Shown piece after piece: positions 37,224-62,847 of a stretch of 64,000 nucleotides of DNA (its first letter is position 1; each line of letters begins with the position of its first letter). Both the position numbers and the translations under genes were made by a program. The notes below the pieces were generated by a model, which saw only the letters and a program-made list of their open reading frames with translations, made no database searches and was not told the DNA's origin. Origin of the DNA: Gammaproteobacteria bacterium (GTDB lineage Bacteria > Pseudomonadota > Gammaproteobacteria > Natronospirales > DASSBR01); NCBI GenBank assembly GCA_035690945.1, contig DASSJY010000003.1, positions 8,900 through 72,899 on the forward strand. Direction: 5' to 3'.

Positions 37224-37233
37224 ACCTCGCTCC

Positions 37234-38901: not shown

Positions 38902-38954
38902 GGGTCAGGGGATAATGCGGTCTAGGGATGACCCTACAGCGCCGCGGAATCGCT

Positions 38955-40776: not shown

Positions 40777-40785
40777 GGCTCGTTC

Positions 40786-43293: not shown

Positions 43294-43378
43294 CCTTGGA
43301 AGCCGATCGACCCGCCGGCATGAGCGGCAGGTCAGACGCAGGTTGTGCTAATGATCGTAGCAGGGAACGGCGTTAAGG

Positions 43379-45193
43379 TCAGCCGGCGACGTGCTCCACC
43401 GATCCGGCCGGCGTCGGCAGCCCGACCTTCTGACAGAACGCCGCGAAGCGAGGATCGCTCTTGTAGCGCAGGATGAACGGGTCGTGGAGCAGGTAGATGA
43501 TACCGGGGTCGCGATTGGTCCACGCGCGATCCAGCCATGCGAACATCCGGTCCGGGTCCCGGCGCAGCGCATAGACCTCGGCAATCTGGTACGCGGCAAC
43601 GTCGGCTTGTTCATTGATCAGCTTCTGCAAGGCCGCATCGGCGGCGACGCGGTCGTCGCCAACCTGGAGCGCCAACGCCAGTGCGACATCCCGCCATCCC
43701 GAGCCACCGCCGGGAATCTCCTGTCGCGCTGCCGTCAGGGCCGCGCGGGCGTCACCGCGCACGATCTCGACGATCGCCAGTTGCTCATGGTAGGACGCAG
43801 CAGTGGGCTGCAAGCCGATCGCTTTTTGTATCGCCTGCCTGGCTTCGTCGGGACGATGGAGCGCCAGCAGGTAATTGGAAAGCCAGCCATACCAGCGAGC
43901 GTTCAGCGGATCTGTCGCCAGCGCCTGGCGGGTCAACTGCACAGCCTGCTGCGTCCGCCCCAGCGCGGCCACCAGTTGCCCGAGAACGGCCTTGGTCTGG
44001 CCGTCGTTCGGCGCCAGTTGCAAGGCGCGCCGGTATTCGGCTTCCGCGCCCTTCCAGTCGAGGCCGGCCAGAATCATCAATTGACCGCGAGCACTGTAAG
44101 CCGCGGCCAATTCCGGGTCCAGCGCGACCGCCGTGGTCGCCGCCGCCGCCGCTTCCGCATAGGCGTGGCGCGCTTTTGCACCGCTAAACGAAGCGGCGGC
44201 CCAGGTGGACCACACGGCCGACAGTCCGGCATAGGCCGCCGCATAGCGCGGGTCGAGCCGGATGGCGGCATCGTAGACGTCGATCGCATTGCGAAAATCC
44301 GCATCGGCGTTGGTCAGGGCGTGCGATTTGGCGTGCAGGTAAGCCGCGTACGCGTCGAGATTACCGCTCGGCGGCCGATCGCTTTGCGCCACCGCACCGG
44401 CCGCGGGCAACAGCTTTGTCTTCAGCGCGGCGGCGACCGCATTCGTGATCTCATCCTGCAATGCAAACAAGTCCTTGTATGGCCGATCGTAGCGCTGCGA
44501 CCACAGCGCACTGCCGTCGGCGGCGTTCACGAGTTCGACACTCACGCGCACGGTGTTGCCGGCGCGGCGCACGCTGCCTTCCAGCAGATGCGCCACGCCG
44601 AGTTTCTCGCCGATGGTCTTGCTGTTGTCCTTGCTGTCGCGGAACTGGAACGAGGAGTTGCGGCCGATGACCTTCAATTCTCCGAACTGCGACAAGGCCG
44701 TGATCAAGTCTTCCGACAAACCGTCGGAGAAGTAGCGCTCGTCGGGATTGCCGCTCTCGTTTGCCAGCGGCAGCACGGCGATCGACTTTGCCGGAATCGG
44801 CGCCGCTGATCTGGTACCGGCGCCGGCCTTGGCCGTCGGGGCTATCGTCGCGGCAATATCCGCCGTCGGCGTGGCATGCTCGAGGCGCCACAGAAATGCG
44901 CCGCCGATCGCGAGCAGCAGCGCCAGGATCAGCAGTTCCGCGCCCGACAGGCGCTGCGCTCCGCGCTCGCCGTGATACCACGCCAGCACCAATACCACGA
45001 AGAAGCCGAGCACGAGCGCCAGCGTGACGCCGCGCAGCAAGGCGAGCGGCCAGTCGAACTGCTGGCCGATGAGATCAAATCCCTGAAGAACCACCCACGA
45101 CCCAGCCAGGTACGCCAGCGCCCACTGCACTAGCTTGCGCTGTTTGAGACGCGCGAAGAACGTGGTCATGATCGGCTCGGGCGCGGTACCCAT
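43379..45193 (-). CDS. Membrane-anchored TPR-repeat protein with TolB-N-like periplasmic module
   Basis: Three N-terminal TM helices, then SIAVLPLANESGNPDERYFSDGLSEDLITALS...LEGSVRR, then about 8 TPR-like repeats. The start is 45193 or MTTFF at 45169. Confidence 0.7.
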   Translation of the reverse strand: MGTAPEPIMTTFFARLKQRKLVQWALAYLAGSWVVLQGFDLIGQQFDWPLALLRGVTLALVLGFFVVLVLAWYHGERGAQRLSGAELLILALLLAIGGAFLWRLEHATPTADIAATIAPTAKAGAGTRSAAPIPAKSIAVLPLANESGNPDERYFSDGLSEDLITALSQFGELKVIGRNSSFQFRDSKDNSKTIGEKLGVAHLLEGSVRRAGNTVRVSVELVNAADGSALWSQRYDRPYKDLFALQDEITNAVAAALKTKLLPAAGAVAQSDRPPSGNLDAYAAYLHAKSHALTNADADFRNAIDVYDAAIRLDPRYAAAYAGLSAVWSTWAAASFSGAKARHAYAEAAAAATTAVALDPELAAAYSARGQLMILAGLDWKGAEAEYRRALQLAPNDGQTKAVLGQLVAALGRTQQAVQLTRQALATDPLNARWYGWLSNYLLALHRPDEARQAIQKAIGLQPTAASYHEQLAIVEIVRGDARAALTAARQEIPGGGSGWRDVALALALQVGDDRVAADAALQKLINEQADVAAYQIAEVYALRRDPDRMFAWLDRAWTNRDPGIIYLLHDPFILRYKSDPRFAAFCQKVGLPTPAGSVEHVAG

Positions 45194-45250
45194 CGGCGGA
45201 CCTCTCGCAAGGAGAGGGTAAGTATAGTCGCCTGTCGGGTCCTTGTACTC

Positions 45251-46162
45251 CTAGGCTCGAAACAACTCGTACCGGCGCTCAAGCGCCTGCCTCGCCGGCC
45301 GTTGCGCAGCCTTGGCGGGAAGTAAAAGCGACTCGTTGTGCAGCGCCTGCAAGCCGTACCTGAGCATCGGCCCGTCAACTTCATCCAGCACGTCGCGCCG
45401 AACCTCAATCACGTAATCCGGTCGCACGCCGATAATGCCGTGGTCGAACGCGGCATGATGAATCTTGCACAGAGACAGCCCATTGGAAACTTCCGGATGT
45501 CCTTCCGGATCGGTATCCGGAATGATGTGCGCTGCATCCAGCAATTCCCGATGCCGCAGATGACACATCGCGCAGTGCGTCCGGTAAGCGTCGAGAACGC
45601 GTTCGCGGAAAGACGCCTGATGCAGACGCCGCTGAACGGCCGCTGTCGCGTACTGCCGTCGGAATGTTGCGGACTCCGGTTCCTCTGCCCCGCCAGTCGC
45701 CGCTAAACGTTCCTCAAATGTGCCGGCTACGTCTGCCATAACGGTGAACTTCAAGGCCGCCCGATCGTCTCCCGTCACAAACACCGGCTTGATGACCGCG
45801 TAGCGACCAACGGTCACCGCGAATAAATAGATTAATGGGACGTTGTCGCGCATTGCATTGCGTAGCCCGACGTTGTCCCGGTGTTGCGGGTTCGTGCCGC
45901 GATAGCTGTAGGAAAGTCGATGCGCGTCTTCAAACCGGTCCGGGTATGGCCCGTTAAGGACGGTCGTGATCGTCAGCGGATAGTCGCAGCCGCGCGGGGT
46001 GAATATCCCTTGCGGCGAAACAAGCGGGATACGCCGGTCGTCCAATTCAAAGCCCGCGGAAAGAAGCGCCCGCGGCAGCACGTCCCCGTGCTGGACAAGT
46101 TGTCTGTTAACCCATTGGAAGGTGCGGGTTCGGACACGTATGTCCCACGATGCAGTGGACAT
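45251..46162 (-). CDS. HNH nuclease (HNH_2-type) with an uncharacterised ~190-aa N-terminal domain; possible modification-dependent restriction enzyme
   Basis: C-terminal CAMCHLRHRELLDAAHIIPD...VSNGLSLCKIHHAAFDHG is the HNH_2 pattern. The N-terminal domain contains YSYRGTNPQHRDNVGLRNAMRDNVPLIYLF. There is no obvious SD before the ATG at 46162. Confidence 0.65.
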   Translation of the reverse strand: MSTASWDIRVRTRTFQWVNRQLVQHGDVLPRALLSAGFELDDRRIPLVSPQGIFTPRGCDYPLTITTVLNGPYPDRFEDAHRLSYSYRGTNPQHRDNVGLRNAMRDNVPLIYLFAVTVGRYAVIKPVFVTGDDRAALKFTVMADVAGTFEERLAATGGAEEPESATFRRQYATAAVQRRLHQASFRERVLDAYRTHCAMCHLRHRELLDAAHIIPDTDPEGHPEVSNGLSLCKIHHAAFDHGIIGVRPDYVIEVRRDVLDEVDGPMLRYGLQALHNESLLLPAKAAQRPARQALERRYELFRA

Positions 46163-46223
46163 GGCGAACGGGGTGACCTACGCGAGCGGCGGACGAGGCG
46201 CGAGCGAAAACTTGCAATAACCC

Positions 46224-46508
46224 CTAAAGCAAGTCGTGGGCTTCCATCTCACCATGAATCTCTCGAATTTCGCGATTTAGTTGCGCAACGTATTCACCAG
46301 CGACTTGAGAAAATAGGTCTTCTCCTACTTCCTCCAGTTTGATCTCAAATACGCCGGCCTTGATTCGCGTTACGAGCTTATTGAACGCGCTTTTTACGGC
46401 ATTAGGCTTGTCGTCAGAGATCGGAATGCTGATCTGTTCAGTGCCAACTCCGATCCTGATGAAGCGGTTGCCGTCTTCGCTTACCACTGTCGCCTTAATT
46501 ATGTCCAT
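46224..46508 (-). CDS. 94-aa acidic protein of unknown function, translationally coupled to the PHP-ATPase gene
   Basis: The ATG at 46508 (MDIIKATVVSEDGN...) lies inside the last codons of the upstream gene (14-nt overlap). GAGG is 8 nt upstream. The composition matches the AT-rich island. I recognise no family. The longer start at 46541 is less likely. Confidence 0.5.
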   Translation of the reverse strand: MDIIKATVVSEDGNRFIRIGVGTEQISIPISDDKPNAVKSAFNKLVTRIKAGVFEIKLEEVGEDLFSQVAGEYVAQLNREIREIHGEMEAHDLL

Positions 46509-48639
46509 AGATCGTGCCTCGCTCTCCAAATGCCTCTTCACCGCCTTCGAGAGTGCTCATGCTGATTTGCTTCCAGTCAAGTTGGTCCGTCGCATCATCA
46601 GAATTTACCAAACTATTCATGAACGGATTGCCGGCGTAGGTGCTATATCCCTCTTTTCCGTGGTGCCGGTAAATGGAACTATAAGGAAGTGTCCGTACTG
46701 CGATATTTGCATCATGAGTCGAAATAAAGACCTTCTTGCCCGCCCGAGCACGCTCCTTAATCAGCGGCACAATGACGTCACTAATATATTCGTTACCCAA
46801 ACTTCGCTCCGGCTCATCAAGGATGTAGATTTCTTTATCTACTCCCAATTCCTTTTGCAACATCACCATGGATGACTCACCGCTCGAGGGCGAATAGGGA
46901 TTTCCGTCCAGTGCGAAGTACCGTTTGAAGAGAAGCAACTCATAAACTGTGTTGATGGTTTCTATATCCTCGATATCGTTGAGGTCCGAAACGTGCTGAA
47001 AGAGATCGTCCGCGTATGCACATTGAAGAATTTTTCGTACGGAATTGACAAACTTTTTCTGTGACCCCTTCTTTACTCCCGTCAGGCTCGAGAGAGCGCC
47101 ATCGGTAATGCTTCCCTTTTGGAAGCGGAACTCCGTCCTGAGTTGTAGTAGTCCTTTACTTGGGCCGAGACTTCCAATATGTTCAATTTGCGTAGGGAGT
47201 TCCGTGTCGACCCCTTTAATGATCTCCGCGGCGTTTAGTTCAACCTTAATTCGGTTCATGGCGTAGTCGCGGAAACCTGTAGTTGTCGGCTTGGCGGGCA
47301 TCCCCGTTTTTCGGGCAACTTCGCTGCGAAAAGTTTTAATCGCAGAATTGAGCAAGAAAATCTCTTTCCAACCTGTGAATGCCTGCCATTTGCCATCGCG
47401 CAGGCGCTGGAGTAATTTTGCTAAAATCCGCGTTACTTCCGTGAATTCATCTCCGCTTAGCATATTCAGCACAGCAGTAGACTTGGGTAGAAATTCGACA
47501 AACTCAGCGGTTCGTTTTACTGCCTCATTAAATTCGCCGAACTTGCGTTTGGCGCCGCCCTCTTCTTCTGGTTCGATATTCGTTAGCAGAATCTTCTTTG
47601 CGTTCTTGTTGGTGCTTTTCGCCGCGAAGTAAAGAACGTACTTGCTCAGGCTGGTAACTGCAACTTCATGCGCGTTCCGTAGGGCCTCGATTTCGTCGGA
47701 ACAATAGTTGATTTCGTGCGTATTGAGATTGATTGCCAAGTCCTTCCCTTTGGTATCAAAAATCTCATTGAGTCGGTCACTCGCGGATTCATAAACTCGC
47801 GCGTCGATTCCGTTCTCCGAGTAGTGTCTAGCAATGGCCTTGAGAATGCATGATTTGCCGGTTCCTTTAGCGCCGAAGATAACGTTGATGTCGTTATATA
47901 CCTTCATTTGCAGCGTCGAACCATCTTCAAATGGATGCAGAAGGAGGCTTTCGGACGTCTTTCGATCCATGGCCGTATTAATCGTCGTCGGATCTTTCTT
48001 CAATAACAGGCAAAAATGTTCGAAGCTGTCCACTGGCAGCCGAAGATCCGGAAGATCGCGAGATAGCTCTTCGTATTTTGCCCAATCTTGAAGGTCAGAC
48101 CCGTAGATAGAAGATCGCCCGTGGGATATATATATACCTGCCGAAATCGAATTGGTCACCTCTTTGATAACGCATTCGGGGTTACTTGTTTTGGTTTCCA
48201 GCGCCTCAATCGCGTCGTCCGGAAGGTTAGGTTTCTTTTGCTTGTAATGGGCGACATATAGCGGATGGAAGGCATCAAACGCCTCTACGACCTCGTCGAT
48301 CGTCGCTGTAAAGCTGTCTGGATTGGAGCCGCTAGTTAGTATTTCGACTGCCGCAGAAAGTTCCGTAGCTCGCGCGGGTGAAACGATTACCAACAAGTGG
48401 CCTCTCACGCCTCCTTCCAAGACATCGAGCTCAACCCCAGGCCAGACTTGCACCTCTCCATCTAAAAGGCTCGCCATCTGCTGATATTGAGCCAAGTCGA
48501 CAGCATTATGGTTAGTGATAGCGATGATCTTGACATCTGTGGAAAGAATCGCCCCGCAGAAATCGGATGGAGAAATCTCTCTCGTCGGCGCATCACCGGA
48601 CTTGCATTTCTTCGTGTGCGCGTGGATGTCGATCTTCAT
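46495..48639 (-). CDS. PHP-domain phosphoesterase fused to an ABC/SMC-type ATPase (Ppl-like candidate defence protein)
   Basis: PHP metal-ligand pattern: IDIHAHT, ITNHN, GVELD, GHLLVI. Walker A GAKGTGKS (res 256-263), signature-like SSGESSM, Walker B IYILDEPE and STHD near the C-terminus. AGGTGG lies 8 nt before the ATG. Confidence 0.85.
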   Translation of the reverse strand: MKIDIHAHTKKCKSGDAPTREISPSDFCGAILSTDVKIIAITNHNAVDLAQYQQMASLLDGEVQVWPGVELDVLEGGVRGHLLVIVSPARATELSAAVEILTSGSNPDSFTATIDEVVEAFDAFHPLYVAHYKQKKPNLPDDAIEALETKTSNPECVIKEVTNSISAGIYISHGRSSIYGSDLQDWAKYEELSRDLPDLRLPVDSFEHFCLLLKKDPTTINTAMDRKTSESLLLHPFEDGSTLQMKVYNDINVIFGAKGTGKSCILKAIARHYSENGIDARVYESASDRLNEIFDTKGKDLAINLNTHEINYCSDEIEALRNAHEVAVTSLSKYVLYFAAKSTNKNAKKILLTNIEPEEEGGAKRKFGEFNEAVKRTAEFVEFLPKSTAVLNMLSGDEFTEVTRILAKLLQRLRDGKWQAFTGWKEIFLLNSAIKTFRSEVARKTGMPAKPTTTGFRDYAMNRIKVELNAAEIIKGVDTELPTQIEHIGSLGPSKGLLQLRTEFRFQKGSITDGALSSLTGVKKGSQKKFVNSVRKILQCAYADDLFQHVSDLNDIEDIETINTVYELLLFKRYFALDGNPYSPSSGESSMVMLQKELGVDKEIYILDEPERSLGNEYISDVIVPLIKERARAGKKVFISTHDANIAVRTLPYSSIYRHHGKEGYSTYAGNPFMNSLVNSDDATDQLDWKQISMSTLEGGEEAFGERGTIYGHN

Positions 48640-48724
48640 GGCTACACCACCTGAAGCTGTTGGCTTCGGCTCCGTATGGAGCCCGCTTGGGGGGGGTCGC
48701 TAGGGATAACCCCTGTTCTTAGTT

Positions 48725-48753
48725 CTTATAGCCAACGACGTCGTGTAAATCAA
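48725..48753 (-). promoter_or_regulatory. Sigma70-like promoter for the PHP-ATPase gene
   Basis: The minus strand reads TTGATT-N17-TATAAG (-35 at 48753-48748, -10 at 48730-48725), about 85 nt upstream of the ATG at 48639. Confidence 0.4.
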
Positions 48754-48839
48754 CCCACAGTTGGGACGCAAGCTCGGAGGCTATAAGACGAGAACTGGAC
48801 TCCAATTGGTGGTTTTTGATCGGCCTAGGCCCTTCTGTG

Positions 48840-51800
48840 TTAGCGTCCAGTTGCGCTCGCGGACTCAGAGATGACGATCAGGCCATCGCCGTTGCGCTGG
48901 ATGCCGGGCTGAGCTGTCATATATTCGAGACCGTCGGCCATTCGCTCGCGGGTCTTCTGAGTCAGGCGCTGAAATCCCAATATTCGCATGGCCTCACGGA
49001 CTAGCGCATCTTCCGTCATGCTGACGTAGCTCTCCAGCACCTGCCTGAGCGCGTTCGCAATTTCCGGCAGCGGAATTTCGTCGGAAGAACGCTTGGCTTC
49101 CGGAACGCCGCCTGGCACACGCACCCGCCGATAGCTGATGGGATCTTGGTTGCGTCGCCATATGACTACATCGCCATCTTCGTCCGTCACAAACACGTCG
49201 GACCGGCGGAGCGCACCTTCTATACGATGGAGTAGTTTCTGGGTGACCTGCTGAAATCCCCACGCCTCGCCGACGCGACGGGCAAGAACCGGCAGCAGCA
49301 CCGGCCCTTCGACGTCTGCCACCTCGTGTATTTGCCGCACGAGCACAATATCCGAGGCGCCTTCATAGATCGCCGATTGTTCGCCGGGTACGAGGTCGAG
49401 TTGGCAGGGCTGGTATTTGGCGGTAGCCGCGGTGCGGCGCGTGGCTTGGTTGAAAACATCCCCGGCCGTTATGCGCAGTCCGTCGCTCTTAGTGGACCCA
49501 CGAGTGGCATTAGGCTCGTTCGAGAGAGCTGCAGCGGGTACTCTCGTTTCCGCCCTGGGAGGCTGTTCCAGTAGTTTGCCGAGAACCTTTTGAAGGCGGT
49601 CGATTTGCTGGGCCGGATCATGCCACCAGTCCGTGGACCAGACTCGGAGCACCGTCCAACCTAGATCCTCTAACACGGCCTGGCGAAGGCGATCACGATC
49701 GCGTGCCGTATGGGCACTGTGATAGGTAGCACCGTCGCATTCTACTGCCGCGAGATATTGCCCTGGCTTCCGAGGATCGAGGATGGCCAAGTCAATTCGG
49801 TAACCCGAGCAGCCGACTTGCGAATGGACTTGCCACCCCTTATCGAGAAGCGCCATTTTCACAGCATCTTCGAAGGGTGATTCGGTGTCGGCACCGGGGT
49901 CTACGGTGAGCTGCGAGTAGAGAGCCTGAGCGCCGCGTTCGGCGTATTCAAGAAAGCTCCGCAGGTCGGCAACTCCGCGTGAGTTGGTTCGGTTTAGATC
50001 GATGTCCGAATAACGGATACTTGAGTAGACGAGCAAAGCCTTACGCGCCCGCGTAATCGCTACGTTCAGTCGCCGCTGACCGCCCTCACGGTTGATCGCA
50101 CCAAAGCTGAGTGTGGAACGCCCGACTGCATCCTTTCCGAAGCAGATCGAAAACAAAATTACGTCCCGTTCATCACCCTGCACGTTCTCTAGATTCTTGA
50201 TAAATACCGGCTCTCGCGCGTCCTCGGCGAAATAACGGTCAAGCTCCGAGTCGCTGAGGCGCGCATTTTCCAGCAGATCCTCAATCAGTCGTTGCTGCTG
50301 AATATTGAAGGTTACGACGCCGATGGATTCGTGCTGGCGTGACGGATCGTGGAGTCGCTGAGCTATTTCGGCAACGATAGCTTCGGCTTCAGCTCGGTTG
50401 GTCCGCGACTTGCCCCGGTCATACACGGCGCCATCTACGTAACGGAACTCGACACCCATGCCTTCCAGGTATGGCGACGGAAAACTTAACAGACGGTTTT
50501 CGTAATACTCGTAATTGCTGAATGCGATCAGGCTTTCGTGGCGGCTCCGGTAATGCCATGTGAGCGGCAGAGACGGGATCCGAGCAGCCGTGCATTCTTC
50601 GAGTATGCTCTCCATGTCTGCGATTTCGTCTGGATCCGGTTCATCTCCAGCGTCGGCGGAGCGATTAAAGAAATTGGTTGGAGGCATCTGCTTGGAGTCA
50701 CCAGCGACGACCAAGCTCTTGCCGCGCGCGATGGCACCGAGTGCGTCCCATGGAGTGATCTGCGATGCTTCATCAAATACGACTACGTCAAACCAAGCGC
50801 GCCCCGCCGGCAGATACTGTGCGATCGACAAGGGGCTCATCAGGACGCACGGCGCGAGCCTGGGCAAAATGTTAGGGATGCTCTGGATAAGTTGGCGAAT
50901 CGGCATCAGGCCGCGCCGCCGCTTCGCTTGGCGCGCAAGGATTCCGATCTCTGAGTCGCCATGCGGTTCCCCGATTGGCCGGGGCACGCGCGCGGCCAAC
51001 GATGCTCGAACGTACTTGCGCGTAAGCTGGGTAAACTGGCTGTCCTGTTCGCGAAACCGTTCGAGTTTGCGCTCGTGCTCGGCGCTGAAAAAATCGCGAA
51101 CCGCGGGTTCAGTTGTCAGAGCGGTCTCAAACCACCATCGGTAAAGACTGCGTTCACAGGCCGCCGCCAGTTGGCCGCCCTCGAATGAACCGCTTTCATA
51201 GGCTGCAATCACGGGCCCGAATCCGCTTTGAATGGCACGATTTCGGGACCTGCGCCAATTGGTCCACTCACGGAGACGGCGCGCATTGGTGCTGAAGAGT
51301 CGGCAGGTGTCGATGAGGCCGCCCAAGTAATCTGCGCCGGCGCCTCCGAACCTGTCAAAATCCAGTTCCAGGGACTGCACCAGTTGATCACGTGCTTCCG
51401 TGAAAACCCGAAAGGCTTCGCGGTAAGCAATGAAGTCGCTTCCAATGGTGCCATCCGGCCGAAGAAGTTGCGGATCAGCGCATGCTATTACCGCCCAAGA
51501 ATCCCGTAGCGCGCGCGCACGCTCCGGGTCTGCATCGCTAAGGCTGAGCGCCGCGCTACGCAGACGGCCGCTCCAAATCTGTAGCCCGTGAATTTCGTCC
51601 CAGTTGCTTTCGCCGGGACGCCAGAAGCGGCCCAGCACGTGCCGCGCATCATCAGACTGCGACGAAAGCAGGTTTTCCTCCTGTTGAACTTGGACTCCCA
51701 GCGCGAGCAACGGGTCGATTGAATCGGGAGCAAGTTTTGCCTTTGTCCTTTGCGTCGCCCTAAGCGCCTTTGTGACGCGCCGCCGGAGAAGCCAAGCCTT

Positions 51801-54758
51801 CATGAACCAGCTTTGATCCGCGAGCTGCCACAGCTTGCGAAGCGCCGCCAGGTCGAGCTCAAGAATCTGCGGCTGATACTCTTGGAGGAGATCCTGCCTA
51901 AGGGCGTCGCGGCGCTTTCCATGCGCAATCCAGTCGTCAAGTTTGGCTTCGAGTTCTTTCCAGTCATCCTGCGCCAGCAGCGCGCGGGGCGGAGCGGGGC
52001 AGTCCAGAAACAGCTTTGTTAGTTCGTGCATCTGTTCGAGCTGGCGCAGCGACCAACCTTGATCCGCTAATTTGAGCCGTGTGGACACGGAGCGTGCGGC
52101 TTGCAGTAGCGCCACGATTGACTGGTGCAATTTTGCGGTGCCGTCGGCGGCATCACGGTCCAAAGCTGGCGTCCACTGCATAGCGCAGACAATGTCAAAG
52201 CGCGGGTTTCCGATTTCATCCCGGATCTTCGCGGCCGTGGCGGTTTCGTCGAGGAGTTCCAGCATGGACGATAGATTGTCGCCGTCAAGCACTTCCAGCG
52301 ATGGCCACGAAGCCGCGACAGCTGGCGCATCGTTCAGCGTCAGTAGATGGCCGATCGCGCGGTAGAGGCTGAGCCCATTGCTGCGCTGCCGATGGAGCCC
52401 TTCCACATAGTCGTTGAGAGCCGACCGCAAATCCGCGAGTTTGACCGCCTCTCGTTCCCAGTCGACTTGCGCCTGTTCCGCAGTGATTGCAAGTGGACGA
52501 GCCAGCTGCTCGACAACTTCGCGCTTCCGAGCTTTTTTGGAATGTAGTTCAAGACAGAAAGGCCCCAGTCCGACCTTATCAAGCCGATCGTAGACAACGT
52601 TCAGCGCCGCCGCTTTTTCTGATACGAATAAAACCGTTTTTCCGTTCATCAGGCACTGGGCAACAATATTTGCGATAGTCTGGGACTTGCCGGTACCTGG
52701 CGGCCCCTCCAATACGAATGTCCGACCTTCAGCAGCAGCGAAGATGGCAGCCAGTTGCGACGAGTCAGCGGGCAGAGGGCAGAACGTATCTTTTGGGTGA
52801 TACTCACGATCAAGCCGGTCCGGTTGAGGAAACTCGCCGTCGTCGCCGAAGGACTCGGTTGCGTGGTTGAGCAGATGGTCGACCACAGAGCTTTGCATGA
52901 TCAATTCCATGTGATCCTGCAGGTCCTTCCACATCAGGTATTTATTAAAGGAGAACAGCCCCAGCGCGACGCGCTCCTGAACCTCCCACCCCGGCAGGTC
53001 ACGCACTGCGTGGCGCACGATGTTGATTATTTGGGGGATGTCGACGCCTGCATCATCTGTCGGCAACGTCTCGAGTGCGCGCAGGTTGAGATCGAAGTCG
53101 CGCTCCAGTAACTGCAGTAGCGAAATATTGATGATCGTGTCGTCGTCATGGCTACACAGCGTAAAGCCGTGGTTGACGGAGCGACGGCTCAATTCAACCG
53201 GCACCAGCACCAGAGGCGCAAGACATGGCTCGCTGCGCTGCTGCGGTACCCACGACAGAAATCCAATGGCTAGATATAGCGTGTTAGCTCCGCCTTCGCT
53301 CTCCGCTTCCTTGGCGGCCCGATAGATCTCCAAAAGGTGGCGGTCCAGGCGTTCTGATCCGAGGACTGAATGCAGACGTCCGGCCTGCATTTCATCGCTG
53401 ATATATCCTTGAAGGGGGTTCTCCCCGGTGCGCGCGATGTAGACATCTGCCTGACGACCGTCGCCGCGCTCCATCAATCTCTCGTTCGGCAAGATCCGGA
53501 ACTGGCTCCCCTCCGCTAAATGATCTTCTAGGGCAGCGGGATCTGCTACCTGCAGTACGACCGTTTTCTTGCTTTCTTTGAAATTCAGCAGGCGGTTGTT
53601 TAGCGTGAGATCCAGCAACATGGCGCGCCAACGCTCGAGGCGGTTCTGCGGGGTTTCTTTTTCCGCCGCGCCCGACAGTCCATCATCCCAAGCCGGTAGG
53701 TCTGGAATGTCAAAGACCGCTTCGTTCTTGACCTTCTGGGCCGGTTCAGCAGGGGCTGTTGCGGCGTTTGCACCGCGAATCGGTAGTGGCTGGATCCGGT
53801 TATGACGTGCTCGCGCGACGTCGATGAACAGACGGAAATCCTCTTCCTCATTAAGCCGGCTACGCGCCTCAGCCACGGCGGTATTGAAGTCGACCGCACG
53901 AGTGGCGGCAGTCGATTCGAACGCGCAGATGTCGCGCATATCCACACGCTTGCGCAATGACAGGAGGTCATCACTGGCTGCAGTCTCAAATGACTCGTCG
54001 TGCAGCCAGACGCCCGGCAACGCGTGCCCGCTGAAGAAGACGATTACCGGATGAAGACCAGCTTGCTCAAGACAAGCCGAAAAAAGCAACGTGCTATCAA
54101 GGCACGTTGCAAGGCGCGTCGATTCAATCCGATCCGGCGTCCGAATCTTCTGGCCGCGCTCCTCGAAGCTGGCAGGTGGACTACAGTAAGCAATATTCGA
54201 TTGCATCACGGTGGCGTAAATCGAGGCCGCAATTGCCCAAACGCGTTTCCGATCTTGCTGCTGATAGCCGTCGAGGGCGCCGCTACCAGTGTGCTTTTCA
54301 AGAACGATCGAGGCGGCGCGAAGATACCGCTCGGTTGCTGGATGGTTCGGAAACGAAAAAGCAGCTATTAGCTCAGGGATGGATCCAATACCAGCCCATT
54401 CGTCATACGCAAGGATGTTGATGGGCAAACTCTGATGGGCTTCCGTTTGGTCGCCAGCCAAGACACTGACAGCGAGCTGACCCCGTAGTCTTTCCGCCAA
54501 GCCGCCAAGGTACCCCGGCGATAGCGTCAAGTCGACGGGTCGCAGTTCGTACGACTCGCCCGGGCTTATGCTGCTAATGCGTGTGCGATAAAGTTCCGCA
54601 AATCCCGGATCGCTCTGCACCTCGACGACGATGTTTTCGACAGTTGTTTCGCCTGTGTTTGCGAGGACGATCGAACGGATTACGGGGACCGCGTTTTGCT
54701 GTCGCGCAAAGTTTACGCGCTCATCGAATTCGACGAGTTTGATTTGAATTCGGGACAT
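48840..54758 (-). CDS. 1972-aa multidomain protein: beta-sandwich + transglutaminase-like Cys/His module, DUF4011, SF1 (Upf1/DNA2-like) helicase with large insertion, Vsr/DUF559-like endonuclease, DUF3320 (Hhe-like candidate defence protein)
   Basis: TCLDSTLLFSACLEQAGL...SGHALPGVWL (Cys219/His245). DUF4011-like LLDLTLNNRLLNFKESKKTV. Walker A LEGPPGTGKSQT (685-692), Walker B VVFDEASQ (~1327), VAGDSKQMPP, WHYRS, VQGDERDV, RRLNVAITRARK. GYRIDLAI...AVECDGATYH...GWTVLRVWSTDWW (about 1650-1712). The C-terminal segment VEGPVLLPVLARRVGEAWGF is DUF3320-like. Confidence 0.9.
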   Translation of the reverse strand: MSRIQIKLVEFDERVNFARQQNAVPVIRSIVLANTGETTVENIVVEVQSDPGFAELYRTRISSISPGESYELRPVDLTLSPGYLGGLAERLRGQLAVSVLAGDQTEAHQSLPINILAYDEWAGIGSIPELIAAFSFPNHPATERYLRAASIVLEKHTGSGALDGYQQQDRKRVWAIAASIYATVMQSNIAYCSPPASFEERGQKIRTPDRIESTRLATCLDSTLLFSACLEQAGLHPVIVFFSGHALPGVWLHDESFETAASDDLLSLRKRVDMRDICAFESTAATRAVDFNTAVAEARSRLNEEEDFRLFIDVARARHNRIQPLPIRGANAATAPAEPAQKVKNEAVFDIPDLPAWDDGLSGAAEKETPQNRLERWRAMLLDLTLNNRLLNFKESKKTVVLQVADPAALEDHLAEGSQFRILPNERLMERGDGRQADVYIARTGENPLQGYISDEMQAGRLHSVLGSERLDRHLLEIYRAAKEAESEGGANTLYLAIGFLSWVPQQRSEPCLAPLVLVPVELSRRSVNHGFTLCSHDDDTIINISLLQLLERDFDLNLRALETLPTDDAGVDIPQIINIVRHAVRDLPGWEVQERVALGLFSFNKYLMWKDLQDHMELIMQSSVVDHLLNHATESFGDDGEFPQPDRLDREYHPKDTFCPLPADSSQLAAIFAAAEGRTFVLEGPPGTGKSQTIANIVAQCLMNGKTVLFVSEKAAALNVVYDRLDKVGLGPFCLELHSKKARKREVVEQLARPLAITAEQAQVDWEREAVKLADLRSALNDYVEGLHRQRSNGLSLYRAIGHLLTLNDAPAVAASWPSLEVLDGDNLSSMLELLDETATAAKIRDEIGNPRFDIVCAMQWTPALDRDAADGTAKLHQSIVALLQAARSVSTRLKLADQGWSLRQLEQMHELTKLFLDCPAPPRALLAQDDWKELEAKLDDWIAHGKRRDALRQDLLQEYQPQILELDLAALRKLWQLADQSWFMKAWLLRRRVTKALRATQRTKAKLAPDSIDPLLALGVQVQQEENLLSSQSDDARHVLGRFWRPGESNWDEIHGLQIWSGRLRSAALSLSDADPERARALRDSWAVIACADPQLLRPDGTIGSDFIAYREAFRVFTEARDQLVQSLELDFDRFGGAGADYLGGLIDTCRLFSTNARRLREWTNWRRSRNRAIQSGFGPVIAAYESGSFEGGQLAAACERSLYRWWFETALTTEPAVRDFFSAEHERKLERFREQDSQFTQLTRKYVRASLAARVPRPIGEPHGDSEIGILARQAKRRRGLMPIRQLIQSIPNILPRLAPCVLMSPLSIAQYLPAGRAWFDVVVFDEASQITPWDALGAIARGKSLVVAGDSKQMPPTNFFNRSADAGDEPDPDEIADMESILEECTAARIPSLPLTWHYRSRHESLIAFSNYEYYENRLLSFPSPYLEGMGVEFRYVDGAVYDRGKSRTNRAEAEAIVAEIAQRLHDPSRQHESIGVVTFNIQQQRLIEDLLENARLSDSELDRYFAEDAREPVFIKNLENVQGDERDVILFSICFGKDAVGRSTLSFGAINREGGQRRLNVAITRARKALLVYSSIRYSDIDLNRTNSRGVADLRSFLEYAERGAQALYSQLTVDPGADTESPFEDAVKMALLDKGWQVHSQVGCSGYRIDLAILDPRKPGQYLAAVECDGATYHSAHTARDRDRLRQAVLEDLGWTVLRVWSTDWWHDPAQQIDRLQKVLGKLLEQPPRAETRVPAAALSNEPNATRGSTKSDGLRITAGDVFNQATRRTAATAKYQPCQLDLVPGEQSAIYEGASDIVLVRQIHEVADVEGPVLLPVLARRVGEAWGFQQVTQKLLHRIEGALRRSDVFVTDEDGDVVIWRRNQDPISYRRVRVPGGVPEAKRSSDEIPLPEIANALRQVLESYVSMTEDALVREAMRILGFQRLTQKTRERMADGLEYMTAQPGIQRNGDGLIVISESASATGR

Positions 54759-54863
54759 TGTTCCCCCCGCTTCCGACGCCGCGCGCCGCTAAAGAAATTC
54801 AGCAGCTATAGGGAAAACGCTACCACTAACGGGTGGCGCCGACAAGGAGAAGCGGGGGCTCGA

Positions 54864-54885
54864 GGCCAGTTCTCGCATTGTAGCA
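54864..54885. repeat. Direct repeat copy A (GGCCAGTTCTCGCATTGTAGCA)
   Basis: 21 of 22 nt are identical to 55852-55873 in the same orientation. It lies about 100 nt beyond the start of the giant helicase gene, at the AT-rich island edge. Confidence 0.7.
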
Positions 54886-55082
54886 GTCGGAAGCGGATTA
54901 CAGAGCCGTCGGACAGCACGAGGATGGTAGCGTAAGGTAGTACCACAGAATCGCACTTCACAACCCAGATGGGCAGTAGCGTGGCGGAGGGGTCGGAGCT
55001 TGACCTTGCACTTCCGACGCCTGTCGCGGCCGCTTGCATGGCAGGCGTTATATCCAGCCATCTCAGGCGACTCTGATGTGGC

Positions 55083-55997
55083 CTAATCGCCGGCAAGCAT
55101 GGAAGCCAGTTCGGGGATGCCGATGACGGCGACGCTTTCGGCTTTCTGGTAGCGCTCTTCGCCGGAATAAACGATGAAGCTGCAGTCCGGCTTCAAATCT
55201 GCGCGGGCGTGGTGGAATCCCTTGTCGAGCTTGGGAGCGAGGCTGCGCTTGATTTCCACGGCCCAGCGCTTGCCGCCGGGCAGATCCAGCACCAAGTCTA
55301 TTTCCGCGCCGGCCGAAGTCCGATAGAAGCAGGCTTGGGTTCTTTCCGGCGCGGCGCTCAGCAGATTTTCTATGACGAAGCCTTCCCAGCTTCCGCCGGC
55401 GACCGGATGGCCGAGCACTGCTTCCCGGTCGTCGAGACCCAGCAGCGCGTGAGCGATGCCGCTGTCGCGCACGTAAACCTTGGGCGATTTTACGAGTCGT
55501 TTGCCGACATTCGCGTGGAAGGGCTGCAAGCGCCGCACCAGCAACAGGTCGACCAGCAGGTCGAGATAGCGGGCGACGGTTTTGCCGTCGACGCCGAGGC
55601 CACGTGCGAGTTGAGCCGCATCAAGCGTTCCGCTGTGCATGTGCGCGAGCATCGTCCAGAAGCGGCGCAGCGTTTCGGCCGGCACTCGCGGCCCCAGTTG
55701 CGGAATATCCCGTTCCAGGTAGGTGCGAATAAAGTTTTCGCGCCAGACGGCGCTGGCCTCGTCAGATGTCGCCAGAAAGCTGTCGGGGAAGCCGCCCCTG
55801 ATCCAGAGCGTTTCTTGTTGGCCACCGTCGATTTCGAGTGCACCAGCCGGGGGCCAGTTCTCGCATTGTTGCATTTGAGCCAGTGGGGGATATCCTCTCG
55901 AGTTACCATCGCACAGGGCAACGTAGCTGCGCATCGCGAGACCCATAGTTCTTCGCGCAACAAGCTGACGCAGCCGTACGCTGCTGCAATTCCGCAA
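55083..55997 (-). pseudogene. 5'-truncated AAA_14/DUF4143-family ATPase gene (only the C-terminal two-thirds retained)
   Basis: From ...TLWIRGGFPDSFLA onward the ORF matches the post-Walker region and DUF4143 part of COG1373-type ATPases (HSGTLDAAQLARGLGVDGKTVARYLDLL, KSPKVYVRDSGI, EIDLVLD). No Walker A or AAA_14 N-domain is present, and the first ~45 aa look unrelated. Homology starts at about the position of repeat copy B. Confidence 0.6.
55852..55873. repeat. Direct repeat copy B (GGCCAGTTCTCGCATTGTTGCA)
   Basis: See copy A. It sits at the point where similarity of the DUF4143 ORF to its family begins. Confidence 0.7.
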
Positions 55998-56015
55998 AAA
56001 AAGGGGGAAAGCTGA

Positions 56016-56591
56016 CTACTGGAGTTCGTCGAGCGTCGAGGTCACGAGCACGCAGGTGCAGCCGGTTTCGCTGTAAACGCGTGTGTCGCCGGTGCCTCGT
56101 TCGCCGCGATTATAGTCGCCCGGATAGAGCTTCCGGTCTTCGATCCACAATTCGCCGTCGAGCAGATGCAATTCCTCGACGCCGGCGTGCTGATGCGGCG
56201 GATATACCCCGCCGGGCTCGAGGCGTACGAGCATGCTCACGCGGTGGCGCTCGGTGTCGTTGGCGAGCAACTGGCACCAGATGCCGGGCGCGACATTTTC
56301 CCATTCCGGCTCTTTCCAGCTTTGCGCCGGAGATGCCGGATCCCGCGCGGTCGCGTCGATGCCAATGCGCTCGGCGAGCCGGTTCCAAAGCGACGGCGAC
56401 GGCCGCAGCACGTCGGTCGGCCACGAGGAGAACGAATCCACCACGGGCGCGAGCGTCGCGAGCGTGCGTCGGCAGTCCTCGCAGGTCGCGAGGTGCGCCT
56501 CAACGCCGGCCTTCTCGCTCGGCGGCAACGCTCCCAGCGCGTAAGCGCAGACCTGGTCCGCAAACCCGCAGTTATTCGCCGGCGCGGTCAT
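56016..56591 (-). CDS. ChrR-type anti-sigma factor (zf-HC2 anti-sigma domain + cupin)
   Basis: The start MTAPANN at 56591 forms an ATGA overlap with the sigma gene stop. HLATCEDCRR is the zinc anti-sigma motif. The C-terminal cupin is PGGVYPPHQHAGVEELHLLDGEL. Confidence 0.8.
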   Translation of the reverse strand: MTAPANNCGFADQVCAYALGALPPSEKAGVEAHLATCEDCRRTLATLAPVVDSFSSWPTDVLRPSPSLWNRLAERIGIDATARDPASPAQSWKEPEWENVAPGIWCQLLANDTERHRVSMLVRLEPGGVYPPHQHAGVEELHLLDGELWIEDRKLYPGDYNRGERGTGDTRVYSETGCTCVLVTSTLDELQ

Positions 56592-57229
56592 AGATCGTTT
56601 CCTTCCGGCCCGAGAGTCCGACGAAGCTTGCCGAGCCCTGACCGGATCCGTGTCTTGATTGTTCCGAGCGGCTCGTTCAGCCGAACCGCCACTTCGGAGT
56701 AGGTCAGGCCGGAGAAATAGGCGGTTTCGATCGCGAGGCGCTCGTTGGCCGTCAAGGTCGCTAGTGCACAATGCAACGTGCCTGCTTGCTGCGCTCGCTC
56801 GACAGGCGCCTCGGACGGGTTGTTGGCCGCAATCGCGGCCTCGGCCTGTCCGGTGTGTGGATTGACGCGCTTCTTGCGTCCATCGTGGCGCACCCGGTCG
56901 ATCGCCCTCGACCGCGCCTGGTTCATGATCCAGCCGACGACCGTACCGGCATCCGGATCGTACGTCGGGGCGCGACGCCAGACGTCGTGAAAAACGTCCA
57001 GCGTCAACTCTTCCGCCGTTTGGCGGTCATTCGCAATTCTCATGGTGAGCGTAAACACGATTCGTTGAGCGCGGTTGTAAAGCGCCTCGAGCGCATACTC
57101 GTCACCGGTCGCGATCGACCTGACGAGCGCGACCCAGTCGCTCTCGTCAACCAGCTCCGCAGCGGGCTGTGCATAAAGCACGTCCCCGAGCGTAGCCGGT
57201 GCCGCCCCTGTTTCATCGTCCTCACGCAC
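56588..57229 (-). CDS. ECF (group 4) RNA polymerase sigma factor
   Basis: Region 2 (AEELTLDVFHDVWRR, GTVVGWIMNQARSRAIDRVR) and region 4 HTH (LTYSEVAVRLNEPLGTIKTRI). Confidence 0.85.
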   Translation of the reverse strand: MREDDETGAAPATLGDVLYAQPAAELVDESDWVALVRSIATGDEYALEALYNRAQRIVFTLTMRIANDRQTAEELTLDVFHDVWRRAPTYDPDAGTVVGWIMNQARSRAIDRVRHDGRKKRVNPHTGQAEAAIAANNPSEAPVERAQQAGTLHCALATLTANERLAIETAYFSGLTYSEVAVRLNEPLGTIKTRIRSGLGKLRRTLGPEGNDL

Positions 57230-57275
57230 GGCGCAATTATCGCCGCATAAGCGCTCGTTGTGAATACCTCGCGGG

Positions 57276-57638
57276 TCACGTTGATTTCGCGCTCGTTAAC
57301 GGGTCGCCAATGGCGGGTAACTCGCCGCCGGCCCTGTTGCGCGCCAGACGGCTCGGGGCCCTGAGCCGGTCGCGCTCGAATTCGAACTCCACGAAACAGT
57401 AGCCATGGAAGTGCAGCTTCTCGAGGCGTGAGGCGCCGTGCGCGCCAGCGAACTCCGCTTCGATCTCCGCCTCAGAGAAATCGATTTTCATCCCGCACAA
57501 CGCGCAGCGGGCGCCGGAGCCACGGCCGCCCCACGTGTCTTTCGGCCGGGTGATCGGCAATCGGCCGTGCGCGATCAGATCGCGTGCCTGCTTGCGCAGT
57601 TGAATTGTCCGCTGCTCAGTTCTCGTAATACTTGTCAT
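57276..57638 (-). CDS. Hypothetical 120-aa protein upstream of the ECF sigma gene
   Basis: The ORF has plausible coding composition and contains CALCG...HFHGYCF, a possible metal site. I recognise no family. Confidence 0.35.
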   Translation of the reverse strand: MTSITRTEQRTIQLRKQARDLIAHGRLPITRPKDTWGGRGSGARCALCGMKIDFSEAEIEAEFAGAHGASRLEKLHFHGYCFVEFEFERDRLRAPSRLARNRAGGELPAIGDPLTSAKST

Positions 57639-57825
57639 ATTCTAAATTTGCCTGTGTTACCGCACGACGTCCGCGGAGAGGGGCGATCAGACCGTCCAGC
57701 ACGGCACGCCCAAAACCTGTTTATAGACGCTGCTTCATACAGTAGAACGTCAAGCGCGGGCGATTGGATTGGTCCCGCCAAGCCGGCTTACTGGCAGGGT
57801 TAGCGGGAGGCTGTTCGGCCTAGGG

Positions 57826-57854
57826 TTTACCCAAGAACAATTTACCCGCATAAT
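57826..57854 (+). promoter_or_regulatory. Sigma70-like promoter feeding riboswitch 1
   Basis: TTTACC-N17-CATAAT. The predicted start site falls at about 57860, the 5' edge of the aptamer. Confidence 0.45.
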
Positions 57855-57962
57855 CGCCACCGCACGACAACGGCAAACCCGGCGAAAGCTGGGGACGCAA
57901 AGCTTCCGGCCTTCGGTATCGCTTAACGACGATGCCTGGTAGCGGGGTCACCGAATGCATGG
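57855..57962 (+). promoter_or_regulatory. c-di-GMP-I (GEMM-I) riboswitch aptamer
   Basis: CGCACGACAACGGCAAACCCGGCGAAAGCTGGGGACGCAAAGCTTCCGGCC...CCTGGTAGCGGGGTCACCGAATGC. This aligns almost position for position with the V. cholerae Vc2 aptamer as I remember it (CACGCACAGGGCAAACCAUUCGAAAGAGUGGGACGCAAAGCCUCCGGCC...GGUAGGUAGCGGGGUUACCGAUGG), including the GAAA tetraloop hairpin. Confidence 0.85.
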
Positions 57963-58097
57963 GTACATAGAAGGCCCGCCTCCACCATGCGCGTTCGCGC
58001 AGGTTTTCCTTGATCGTGTGTTCAATGCAGTTTCGCGGAGCTGTTGCGAGTTGCATCAGGCCTGTCTGAGTGGCCGGCAATGATCGAGGGTTCATCG

Positions 58098-60767: not shown

Positions 60768-60782
60768 TTAGAGGAATTGGGA

Positions 60783-62015: not shown

Positions 62016-62072
62016 CGCAATCCGGTCCTGGATCGACCTTGTCTTAGATCGAGTCTAAATTGCTGTATTTTC

Positions 62073-62101
62073 TTGCCCTGCATGTGGATTCCCGCTAAAA
62101 T
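62073..62101 (+). promoter_or_regulatory. Sigma70-like promoter feeding riboswitch 2
   Basis: TTGCCC-N17-TAAAAT. The predicted start site falls at about 62107, the 5' edge of the second aptamer. Confidence 0.45.
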
Positions 62102-62102
62102 T

Positions 62103-62205: not shown

Positions 62206-62335
62206 GGCGATGTTCTGTCCGCCTGTTCTGTGGCTCTCTATTGCAGAGTTTCGTGCCCGTGCGCTGGTGCAGGTCGGCTTATGCCGACGGTGCCGGCGTG
62301 TATTTTCGTACCCGAAATAGGGATGGAATGAAACG

Positions 62336-62836: not shown

Positions 62837-62847
62837 GGGGAACTAAA

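Follow-up and report, generated by a model that had tools for sequence, protein, structure and literature searches.

Core defense hotspots, of which cDHS1 of Pseudomonas aeruginosa is an example, hold exchangeable defense cargo between conserved flank genes with no obvious mobile element, and the conserved flank genes of cDHS1 include a large DUF4011 gene (PMC10250203). Among single anti-phage proteins, Ppl has a PHP domain that is a 3′-5′ exonuclease on single-stranded DNA, inhibited by nucleoside triphosphates (NTPs) and activated at 3′-OH ends (PMC12904381). Here we describe a locus that can be compared with both, in a 64,000-nucleotide window (contig DASSJY010000003.1 of assembly GCA_035690945.1, positions 8,900 to 72,899 of the forward strand) from the genome of an uncultured soil gammaproteobacterium. 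The segment at 43.4–55.0 kb of the window encodes a TPR protein, an HNH endonuclease, a predicted PHP phosphoesterase–ATPase fusion (the PHP-ATPase) with a 94-amino acid (aa) partner, and a 1972-aa helicase-nuclease, ProA. We consider it highly probable that this segment is cargo built up by several separate acquisitions at a defense hotspot, and that it comprises three independent anti-phage modules on the same strand: ProA, the PHP-ATPase/94-aa pair, and the HNH protein.

The site differs between closely related genomes

The closest genome available, represented by contig DASSNE010000034.1, shares ∼87–92% nucleotide identity with the window and was reached via LigD; two of its loci (L087 and L253) were compared with the window by blastn. 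This sister genome is collinear with the window from 31030 to 43368 (87–92% identity), a segment containing a repeat-rich giant open reading frame (ORF) and the genes for a histidine kinase, Ku and LigD, and collinearity resumes at window positions 54983–55838 (91.6% identity) within a DUF4143 ATPase gene. The interval from LigD to the DUF4143 gene is occupied in the sister genome by 6.4 kb of cargo that is unrelated to that of the window and has a G+C content of 0.49–0.58. Its genes are for a Fic protein (SoFic/PDC-S04-like), an N6/N4 methyltransferase, a ResIII/PbeA-like helicase, a HATPase_c_3 (GHKL) ATPase, and a 258-aa protein that matches no family. Because the same site holds two different defense-type cargoes in close relatives, it appears to be a hotspot at which cargo is swapped, and the comparison supports an interpretation of the region as the horizontally acquired, variable cargo of a defense hotspot located between Ku-LigD, which are genes of non-homologous end joining (NHEJ), and the DUF4143 ATPase gene. 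Both of the properties looked for in a hotspot are present, with different cargo lying between shared flanks and a composition and codon usage that are atypical of the host.

An earlier reading of this DNA, referred to here as the original prediction, had proposed that the genes at 45.2–56.0 kb form a horizontally acquired island that should be variable among relatives. The comparison agrees with this, in that the site is variable and the island genes are missing from it in the sister genome, and the atypical third-position G+C and codon usage described below agree with horizontal acquisition; the extent of the variable stretch is greater toward the left, however, beginning at 43369 and including the TPR gene. 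All of the intact island genes except the 94-aa ORF match a defense family or a defense candidate (PADLOC, NCBIfam). The stretch from 44961 to 58000 is covered by two independent metagenome assemblies at a depth of 11–13×, equal to that of the flanks, and the island is therefore not an assembly chimera and its junctions are real. We found no convincing island-less joint in soil metagenome contigs. The site represents a clean natural case of a putative chromosomal defense hotspot beside NHEJ genes, with cargo that has been exchanged between close relatives and no visible mobility gene.

The TPR gene lies inside the variable stretch and is not at this site in the sister genome, although its composition is like that of the host. 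Lysobacterales-type genomes contain multiple paralogues of its family (41–61% identity), none of them adjoining LigD, and the gene was rejected as a synteny anchor because the 78 loci that it identified are paralogues at 41–61% identity with no LigD nearby. Close relatives (50–60% identity; L008, L021, L027, L028, L031-L033) are found in Rhodanobacteraceae and Lysobacterales assemblies, with multiple copies in a genome, and also in metagenome-assembled genomes of Verrucomicrobiota (Chthoniobacterales), which could reflect either horizontal transfer or contamination of genome bins.

We also note a stretch of 63 nt in the sister cargo (L087 8329-8391, corresponding to window 43104-43166), located between the methyltransferase and Fic genes, that duplicates the 5′ part of LigD with 87% identity. 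In that genome a direct repeat of the LigD fragment thus surrounds the Fic gene and the start of LigD, an arrangement that suggests a past site-specific insertion into LigD at its 5′ end.

Composition of the cargo

G+C content was followed with a sliding window, and individual genes were characterized by their G+C content at third codon positions (GC3) and by the Kullback-Leibler (KL) divergence of their codon usage from a host gene set. In the left flank (38–45 kb) the G+C content is 0.61–0.69, mostly ∼0.65–0.67; it is lowest, at 0.466–0.484, at 46.25–48.25 kb, and is intermediate (0.55–0.62) from 48.5 to 55 kb. Host genes (n = 9) have GC3 values of 0.79–0.88 and KL values of 0.06–0.17, while the KL values of the island genes range from 0.38 to 0.90 and their GC3 values are 0.68 for the HNH gene, 0.54 for both the 94-aa ORF and the PHP-ATPase gene, 0.63 for ProA, and 0.72 for the DUF4143 remnant; the TPR gene has a GC3 of 0.80. 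The AT-richer stretch of the original prediction, with its strongest drop at about 46.2–48.8 kb, is confirmed. Its description of the flanks as approximately two-thirds G+C applies to the left flank but not to the right side, where a G+C content of 0.66 is reached only at 56.0–56.75 kb and the segment from 57 to 64 kb has 0.56–0.63.

As the original prediction had also noted, mobility functions are missing. There is no tRNA gene in the whole window (ARAGORN), no integrase, transposase or recombinase domain in the island ORFs (Pfam, PADLOC and NCBIfam profiles), and a repeat search found no att-type direct repeats at 43369 and 54982, so that none of the recombinase, tRNA insertion site and att repeats by which an integrative mobile element is recognized is found here. 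An Rfam scan of 43–58 kb revealed no retron or other defense RNA, and its only match is one riboswitch located outside the island. The missing mobility genes, tRNA and clear border att repeats are what might be seen if the low G+C content had arisen not by horizontal acquisition but by local compositional drift, or from the amino acid content of ancestral core genes. Nonetheless, this explanation has next to no credibility given that GC3 and codon usage are strongly unlike those of host genes, that the sister genome has none of these genes at the site, and that the ATPase is 70–77% identical to proteins of other phyla.

The ProA helicase-nuclease

The 1972-aa protein matches the NCBIfam equivalog model NF058533 (‘anti-phage protein ProA’) with a score of 2203.8 bits against a cut-off of 1500, and does so from end to end, with ProA residues 16–1931 aligned to model positions 1–1903 of 1903; it also scores 1373 bits with PADLOC PDC-S37. 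The domain order found with Pfam is an N-terminal region, DUF4011, a superfamily 1 (SF1) helicase (AAA_11/AAA_12), an MTES_1575 nuclease and DUF3320. The helicase motifs are intact, with a Walker A motif (GPPGTGKS) at residue 685 and a Walker B motif (VVFDEAS) at about residue 1328, and the nearest solved helicases are IGHMBP2, Upf1 and Sen1. On Pseudomonas and Rhizobium plasmids, full-length homologues with 38–40% identity occur singly, surrounded by unrelated genes, which fits with a single-protein system. By these matches the protein is assigned to ProA, a single-protein anti-phage system, and this copy would be predicted to confer phage resistance. A second candidate family, Hhe (NCBIfam NF042953, ‘DUF4011 domain-containing anti-phage protein Hhe’), has the C-terminal helicase lobe and nuclease in common with the protein, but was rejected because the protein reaches 870.7 bits where the cut-off is 2000 and is covered only in part (residues 1112–1736).

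The domain composition suggests that the SF1 (Upf1-like) motor probably moves along foreign nucleic acid, bringing to it the C-terminal MTES_1575 nuclease, which is of the Vsr/PD-(D/E)xK type. Within the N-terminal region (residues 1–380, encoded at 53619–54758) there is a faint match to the transglutaminase-like DUF553 (E = 0.022, residues 185–241), with a Cys and, farther along, a GH; it is possible that this region is an extra catalytic or sensor domain.

The PHP-ATPase and its 94-aa partner

The N-terminus of the 714-aa PHP-ATPase matches the NCBIfam TrlF and CehA/McbA metallohydrolase models, which supports a PHP fold, and alignments of the family reveal an invariant PHP-type metal-binding set consisting of D4, H6, H8, H44, E70, H81, H131 and D182. 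The ABC motifs are likewise invariant in the family: Walker A at 256–263 (G256-K262), the signature at S585-G587-E588, Walker B at D608-E609, and the H-loop at H642, with an insert of ∼320 residues between Walker A and the signature whose central part is predicted to be helical. Three PADLOC PDC-M49A models (profile lengths 541–681) match with E-values of 7e-33, 7e-20 and 1e-10 but cover the N- and C-terminal thirds only; the matches are collinear with the protein, with 7e-33 at residues 2–153 and 7e-20 at residues 576–712. There are weaker PADLOC matches to HEC-02A, AriA, PtuA, GajA and Ppl, and among solved sequences AriA and PtuA are nearest, with similarity confined to the P-loop region. 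Identity with Ppl itself (NCBIfam NF042955/PADLOC) was rejected, with 20.2 bits where the cut-off is 1000 and a match that is limited to residues 583–650, around Walker B. Membership in the PARIS, Gabija or OLD systems was rejected too, because the P-loop matches are weak, all of the models score far below threshold, and there is no Toprim domain in the island ORFs.

The start of the 94-aa ORF overlaps the stop of the ATPase gene by 14 nt (ATGGACATAATTAA). Its product is acidic, with ∼17 acidic and 11 basic residues, and has 580 homologues, all without annotation; there is no match to Pfam or to a defense family, and neither the protein nor its plasmid counterparts match a PDC-M49 model even at E-values up to 5, or any other PADLOC model. 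An AlphaFold2 model of the protein has a mean predicted local distance difference test (pLDDT) score of 84.7 and a beta3-alpha-beta-alpha element order, and a fold search of the PDB with this model gave no match at E ≤0.001; the top matches, to ribosomal proteins and an integrase core domain, were set aside as uninformative with template modeling (TM) scores of ∼0.3–0.4. An exhaustive profile search found no informative fusions among the 132 clusters of the family at 50% identity, which contain small orphan proteins only. A match to LmuC (E = 0.042) is not significant and is no more than a lead.

The ATPase family has more than 1200 members and extends from Gammaproteobacteria to Bacteroidota and to Staphylococcus plasmids. 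The best 120 homologues are 70–77% identical to the window protein, nearly all are 713–715 aa long, and they derive from Nitrospirales, Sedimentisphaerales, Deltaproteobacteria and Gammaproteobacteria; a copy from Bacteroidetes is 46% identical. Only four loci were recovered by a single-protein scan of genome contigs, and metagenome contigs were therefore scanned with an alignment. At every locus with downstream sequence (∼85 loci on metagenome, genome and viral contigs and plasmids, in six or more phyla) a small ORF of 94–100 aa lies 3′ of the ATPase gene, overlapping it by 8–14 nt and with 35–67% identity. The ATPase gene and the 94-aa ORF therefore constitute a self-contained, translationally coupled, obligate pair. 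A Photobacterium plasmid encodes an ATPase with 51% identity and has the overlapping small ORF, and on S. aureus plasmids the pair is kept at 26% identity (705 aa plus 100 aa).

Full-length relatives with 23–26% identity are also found on S. aureus plasmid pCOL52-A5 (L336) and on Enterococcus faecalis plasmids (H38-H45), beside IS257 and Fst toxin genes. The annotation of these staphylococcal and enterococcal relatives is either hypothetical protein or histidinol phosphatase, and in each case a hypothetical protein falls under that same match; among the distant plasmid relatives the overlapping small ORF is confirmed only in the S. aureus and Photobacterium records.

The genes next downstream of the pair are, duplicate contigs aside, mutually unrelated, and 112 of the 130 immediate neighbors are singletons. 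The neighbors include five integrases, Eco57I/PglX/type IIG enzymes, N6 and C5 methyltransferases, GmrSD and TIR proteins, and further a KAP NTPase, a retron RT-Toprim, mad2, HEC-06 and IS66; the neighborhood of the pair is that of defense islands and mobile elements.

How might the pair act? An ABC ATPase of the OLD/AriA/PtuA type would be expected to oligomerize via its nucleotide-binding heads, and could bind the 94-aa subunit, which would serve to regulate it or to sense; a phage cue would then, on the model of Ppl, release the PHP domain, leading to the degradation of DNA. Both the PHP metal-binding residues and the NTPase motifs that a Ppl-like mechanism would use are conserved in the family alignments. 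We suggest tentatively, with confidence somewhat short of even, that the pair is a new and very widespread two-component anti-phage system in which the small subunit acts as a sensor of, or a brake on, a PHP exonuclease. In that case its unusual conservation would suggest either very recent spread between phyla or constraint that is atypical of immune genes.

This conservation, which is high for a defense gene (70–77% identity across phyla among the best 120 homologues), could alternatively be accounted for if the pair were not immune but a machine for DNA repair or mobile-element maintenance, an analogue of SbcCD/Mre11-Rad50 residing on plasmids and islands. The combination of a phosphoesterase with an ABC ATPase having a helical insertion between Walker A and signature does parallel Mre11-Rad50, and the presence of the pair on S. 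aureus, Enterococcus and Photobacterium plasmids would also be consistent with such a role. We regard this as unlikely, given the sporadic distribution of the pair in variable islands beside restriction-modification systems, BREX-type PglX, GmrSD, TIR, retrons and integrases, contexts that caused PADLOC to list the family as a defense candidate, and given that the solved ATPases nearest in sequence are defense proteins.

The HNH gene is located only 61 nt downstream of the pair, and together with the weak matches of PtuA models and structures to the P-loop region this raises the question as to whether the ATPase, the small protein and the HNH nuclease constitute a Septu-like (PtuA-PtuB) three-gene system, in which an ABC ATPase would control the HNH nuclease. 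There seems only a slim chance of this: the NCBIfam PtuA model scores 19.5 bits against a cut-off of 500, the HNH gene adjoins the pair in this genome only, with the downstream gene elsewhere being unrelated or absent, the GC3 values of the HNH gene (0.68) and the pair (0.54) differ, and the ATPase has a predicted nuclease domain (PHP) of its own. The two-component reading of the pair is the one that we prefer. The pair is a compact candidate for experiment, with two highly conserved genes in 2.4 kb that are present in several phyla and on plasmids of clinically relevant Gram-positive bacteria.

The HNH endonuclease

The 303-aa HNH protein matches Pfam HNH_2 (4e-10, residues 197–246) and the PADLOC ‘HNH’ model PDLC04132 (2e-22, residues 161–294). 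Its family comprises more than 7000 proteins of ∼303 aa, to several of which JGI has given the name ‘putative restriction endonuclease’; their contexts are varied and unrelated, with some adjoining SIR2_2, HsdM, AbiEi, NERD and HigB genes. Conservation across the family is good over residues 1–170. The best PDB match of the full-length HNH family profile, although not a significant one (E = 0.21), is TagI, an SRA-HNH enzyme whose activity requires modified cytosine; a weak alignment in the region of the TagI N-terminal domain hinted at an SRA-like N-terminal domain, which the N-terminal profile alone did not confirm. A phosphorothioate-dependent nuclease (NCBIfam PT-DNA_restrict, NF045808) was rejected, with 62.6 bits against 180 and a match to the HNH half only (residues 177–295).

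No methyltransferase domain was found at 43–57 kb (Pfam, PADLOC, NCBIfam), and this is thus an HNH nuclease with no cognate methyltransferase, as in type IV systems. Because the island has no methyltransferase, the most economical reading is that the protein is probably a modification-dependent, type IV-like restriction enzyme, and as a solitary HNH_2 endonuclease it would most likely cut modified (non-self) DNA in the manner of type IV enzymes.

Relationships among the modules

The coordinates of the features are listed in Table 1. The original prediction of four intact genes on the minus strand, with intervening gaps of 200 nt and 61 nt and with the TPR gene ending at 45193, was exact in every particular. 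It had further proposed, on the basis of the shared strand and the short gaps, that the modules may cooperate, and this was not borne out: GC3 differs sharply between modules, there is no co-occurrence at the ∼85 pair loci, and ProA and HNH homologues occur alone elsewhere.

Table 1. Features of the region and their window coordinates
Feature	Coordinates	Strand	Basis
TPR protein, 604 aa	43379..45193	-	Pfam TPR matches
HNH_2 endonuclease, 303 aa	45251..46162	-	Pfam HNH_2
61-nt spacer, 94-aa ORF stop to HNH start	46163..46223	-	Sequence read
94-aa acidic partner of PHP-ATPase	46224..46508	-	ATG at 46508
Predicted PHP phosphoesterase-ABC-type ATPase fusion, 714 aa	46495..48639	-	Relative of PADLOC candidate PDC-M49A
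200-nt spacer, ProA stop to PHP-ATPase start	48640..48839	-	Sequence read; holds inverted junction-motif copy
ProA helicase-nuclease, 1972 aa	48840..54758	-	NCBIfam NF058533
Junction motif copy 1, GGCCAGTTCTCGCATTGTAGCA	54864..54885	+	Repeat/pattern search
DUF4143/AAA_14 ATPase, 5′-truncated remnant (PADLOC PDC-S01-like)	55083..55838	-	Pfam, PADLOC, sister genome
Junction motif copy 2, GGCCAGTTCTCGCATTGTTGCA	55852..55873	+	Repeat/pattern search
Variable stretch vs sister genome (cargo)	43369..54982	.	blastn; TPR, HNH, 94-aa ORF, PHP-ATPase and ProA inside

The strongest form of this proposal is that the four co-directional genes form a single operon encoding one cooperative multi-gene defense system. 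The common strand and the 200-nt and 61-nt gaps are compatible with such an arrangement, as is the result of a scan of the two spacers, neither of which contains a minus-strand terminator-like site. We nonetheless give it little credence, since none of the ∼85 other pair loci has an adjoining ProA or HNH homologue, homologues of ProA and of the HNH protein are each found alone elsewhere, and the GC3 values of 0.63 (ProA), 0.54 (the pair) and 0.68 (HNH) imply separate origins. Across the 61-nt spacer the G+C content rises from 0.48 on the side of the pair to 0.60 on the HNH side. Moreover, copies of a repeated junction motif lie on both sides of ProA, setting it off like a separate unit.

This 22-nt motif, GGCCAGTTCTCGCATTGT[A/T]GCA, has two direct copies that match the pattern, where none is expected by chance. 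Copy 1 is located 106–127 nt upstream of the ProA start codon and copy 2 begins 14 nt past the DUF4143 homology breakpoint, such that the two flank the DUF4143 remnant, and there is a diverged inverted copy matching at 19/23 positions at 48780–48802, in the spacer between the ProA and ATPase genes. Because of this inverted copy and the presence of copy 1 upstream of ProA, the ProA gene is bracketed by inverted copies. The similarity of the repeats spans 22–40 nt and involves three module junctions. The motif was not found in the other loci compared, except on two contigs that copy this window. Its coding-strand reading includes TGCTACAAT, similar to an extended -10 promoter element, and the motif could be either a duplicated promoter-like element or a recombination scar.

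Several points weigh against the interpretation of the segment as three independent anti-phage modules at a defense hotspot. The hotspot is documented by two alternative cargoes and by one close relative only, and because the spacers contain no minus-strand terminator-like site, all four genes may be co-transcribed by read-through; the public runs that contain sequence of the window are DNA metagenomes only. The mechanism suggested for ProA is read from its domains. The Pfam PHP match of the ATPase is below threshold, at 15 bits against 26.4 (E = 0.033), and its AlphaFold2 model is poor, with a mean pLDDT of 47, so that the fold is unconfirmed; because of this value the model was left out of the fold search. 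For the N-terminal part of the HNH protein there is no significant match, either over residues 1–179 with Pfam and PADLOC or with the N-terminal profile alone against structures, and the dependence of this enzyme on DNA modification is a guess from the missing methyltransferase. No experimental paper was found on the PHP-ATPase pair or on this HNH family, and a phenotype is on record for neither. We infer all of the biochemical activities, and the defense phenotype of the pair and HNH modules.

Most of the content of the island is of known kinds, and the part worth experiment is the PHP-ATPase/94-aa pair. The original prediction had favored the region as a place for undescribed immunity functions, and this expectation survives for the pair, for which we found no experimental description, with the qualification that its ATPase has already been catalogued as PDC-M49A-like. 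It does not survive for ProA, which belongs to a family named by NCBIfam and listed as PDC-S37, or for the HNH protein, a member of a very common class of predicted restriction endonucleases.

The DUF4143 remnant and the neighboring regions

On the right, the cargo is adjoined by the DUF4143 ATPase gene, which the original prediction had described as decayed. Pfam identifies only DUF4143 in the window copy, and the PADLOC PDC-S01 profile matches over positions 170–417 of 422; the gene in the sister genome is intact, encoding 388 aa with both AAA_14 and DUF4143. A full-length PDC-S01 protein has both the ATPase and DUF4143 domains, and the description as decayed is correct because the window copy lacks the AAA_14 half that the intact sister gene has kept. 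Homology to the sister gene ends at 55838, and the mechanical ORF continues to 55997 through unrelated sequence. By this comparison the DUF4143 ATPase gene here is a 5′-truncated pseudogene (PDC-S01-like). Genes that are 75–86% identical occur in Sphingomonadales, Rhodobiaceae, Arenicellales and other Alpha- and Gammaproteobacteria (L254-L332), and because this identity crosses lineages the ‘flank’ of the hotspot is itself likely to be a horizontally spreading gene of the PDC-S01 type.

Beyond the DUF4143 gene, the next 8 kb are unrelated between the window and the sister genome. In the window, 55838–64000 contains an anti-sigma/ECF sigma pair, which begins at 56016, followed by genes for a PAS kinase, an EAL regulator and a PapD chaperone. 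With a right-flank GC3 of 0.67–0.75 beyond 56.75 kb and no sister counterpart, the atypical or variable region may reach past the end of the window. The riboswitch identified in the Rfam scan is c-di-GMP-I-GGC (RF03167) at 57863–57956 (+), with a score of 65.7 bits against a gathering threshold of 59 (E = 6e-14). It lies just upstream of a gene for a PAS/histidine-kinase/receiver hybrid (58044–60767), which is followed by one for an EAL phosphodiesterase response regulator (60777–62015), and looks like a cyclic di-GMP (c-di-GMP)-sensing leader of an operon that degrades c-di-GMP. Far to the left of the cargo, at 31512–37247 (-), is a 1911-aa ORF with many internal repeats that gives an offset blastn ladder against the sister genome (∼75% identity, 34.2–36.8 kb); it probably encodes a large repeat-domain surface protein.

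Comparison with known systems

The organization of the site resembles that of cDHS1, in which conserved flank genes enclose exchangeable defense cargo with no obvious mobile element (PMC10250203). The two differ in their flanks, which here are LigD and the DUF4143 ATPase gene, and in the position of the DUF4011 protein, which as ProA is part of the cargo rather than of the flank; two cargoes are documented for the site described here.

ProA agrees with the described family (NF058533/PDC-S37) over its full length and in domain order, and we detect no difference at the family level, although its closest annotated homologues on plasmids are just 38–40% identical to the window copy. The HNH protein can be compared with TagI-type SRA-HNH and other type IV HNH enzymes, to which it is similar in size (303 aa, with 311 aa for TagI), in its C-terminal HNH_2 domain, and in having an N-terminal domain in the position of the reader. 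It differs in that the match to TagI is not significant, and that no SRA or sulfur-binding structure is found with the N-terminal domain by itself.

For the pair, the nearest catalogued relative is PDC-M49, whose subunit A has the same architecture, with collinear matches at both ends of the PHP-ATPase, and belongs to a family tied to defense islands. These matches are partial, however, involving the N-terminal 150 aa and the C-terminal 140 aa, and the 94-aa partner is unmatched. PDC-M49 is a computational candidate on which full-text searching found no paper.

Among solved or modeled ATPase heads, the nearest belong to PARIS AriA, Septu/retron PtuA and Gabija GajA, and the similarity lies in the P-loop and signature regions. 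These systems place a nuclease under the control of an oligomeric ATPase, as we propose for the pair, but their nuclease is a Toprim or HNH domain that is separate or C-terminal, while here it would be an N-terminal PHP domain. In this last respect the closer parallel is Ppl of E. coli, a single-protein system that like the window protein has an N-terminal PHP phosphoesterase fused to a P-loop NTPase, and which we adopt as a working model. The differences are in length, with Ppl models of ∼880–890 against 714 aa here, and in composition, since Ppl is encoded by a single gene and the PHP-ATPase is always accompanied by its 94-aa partner. If the tentative two-component interpretation is correct, then the mechanism of the pair would differ both from that of Ppl, a single protein, and from those of OLD, PARIS and Septu, which are based on Toprim or HNH nucleases. 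It would be the second mechanism, after that of Ppl, to be based on a PHP nuclease, and its small regulatory subunit would be new.

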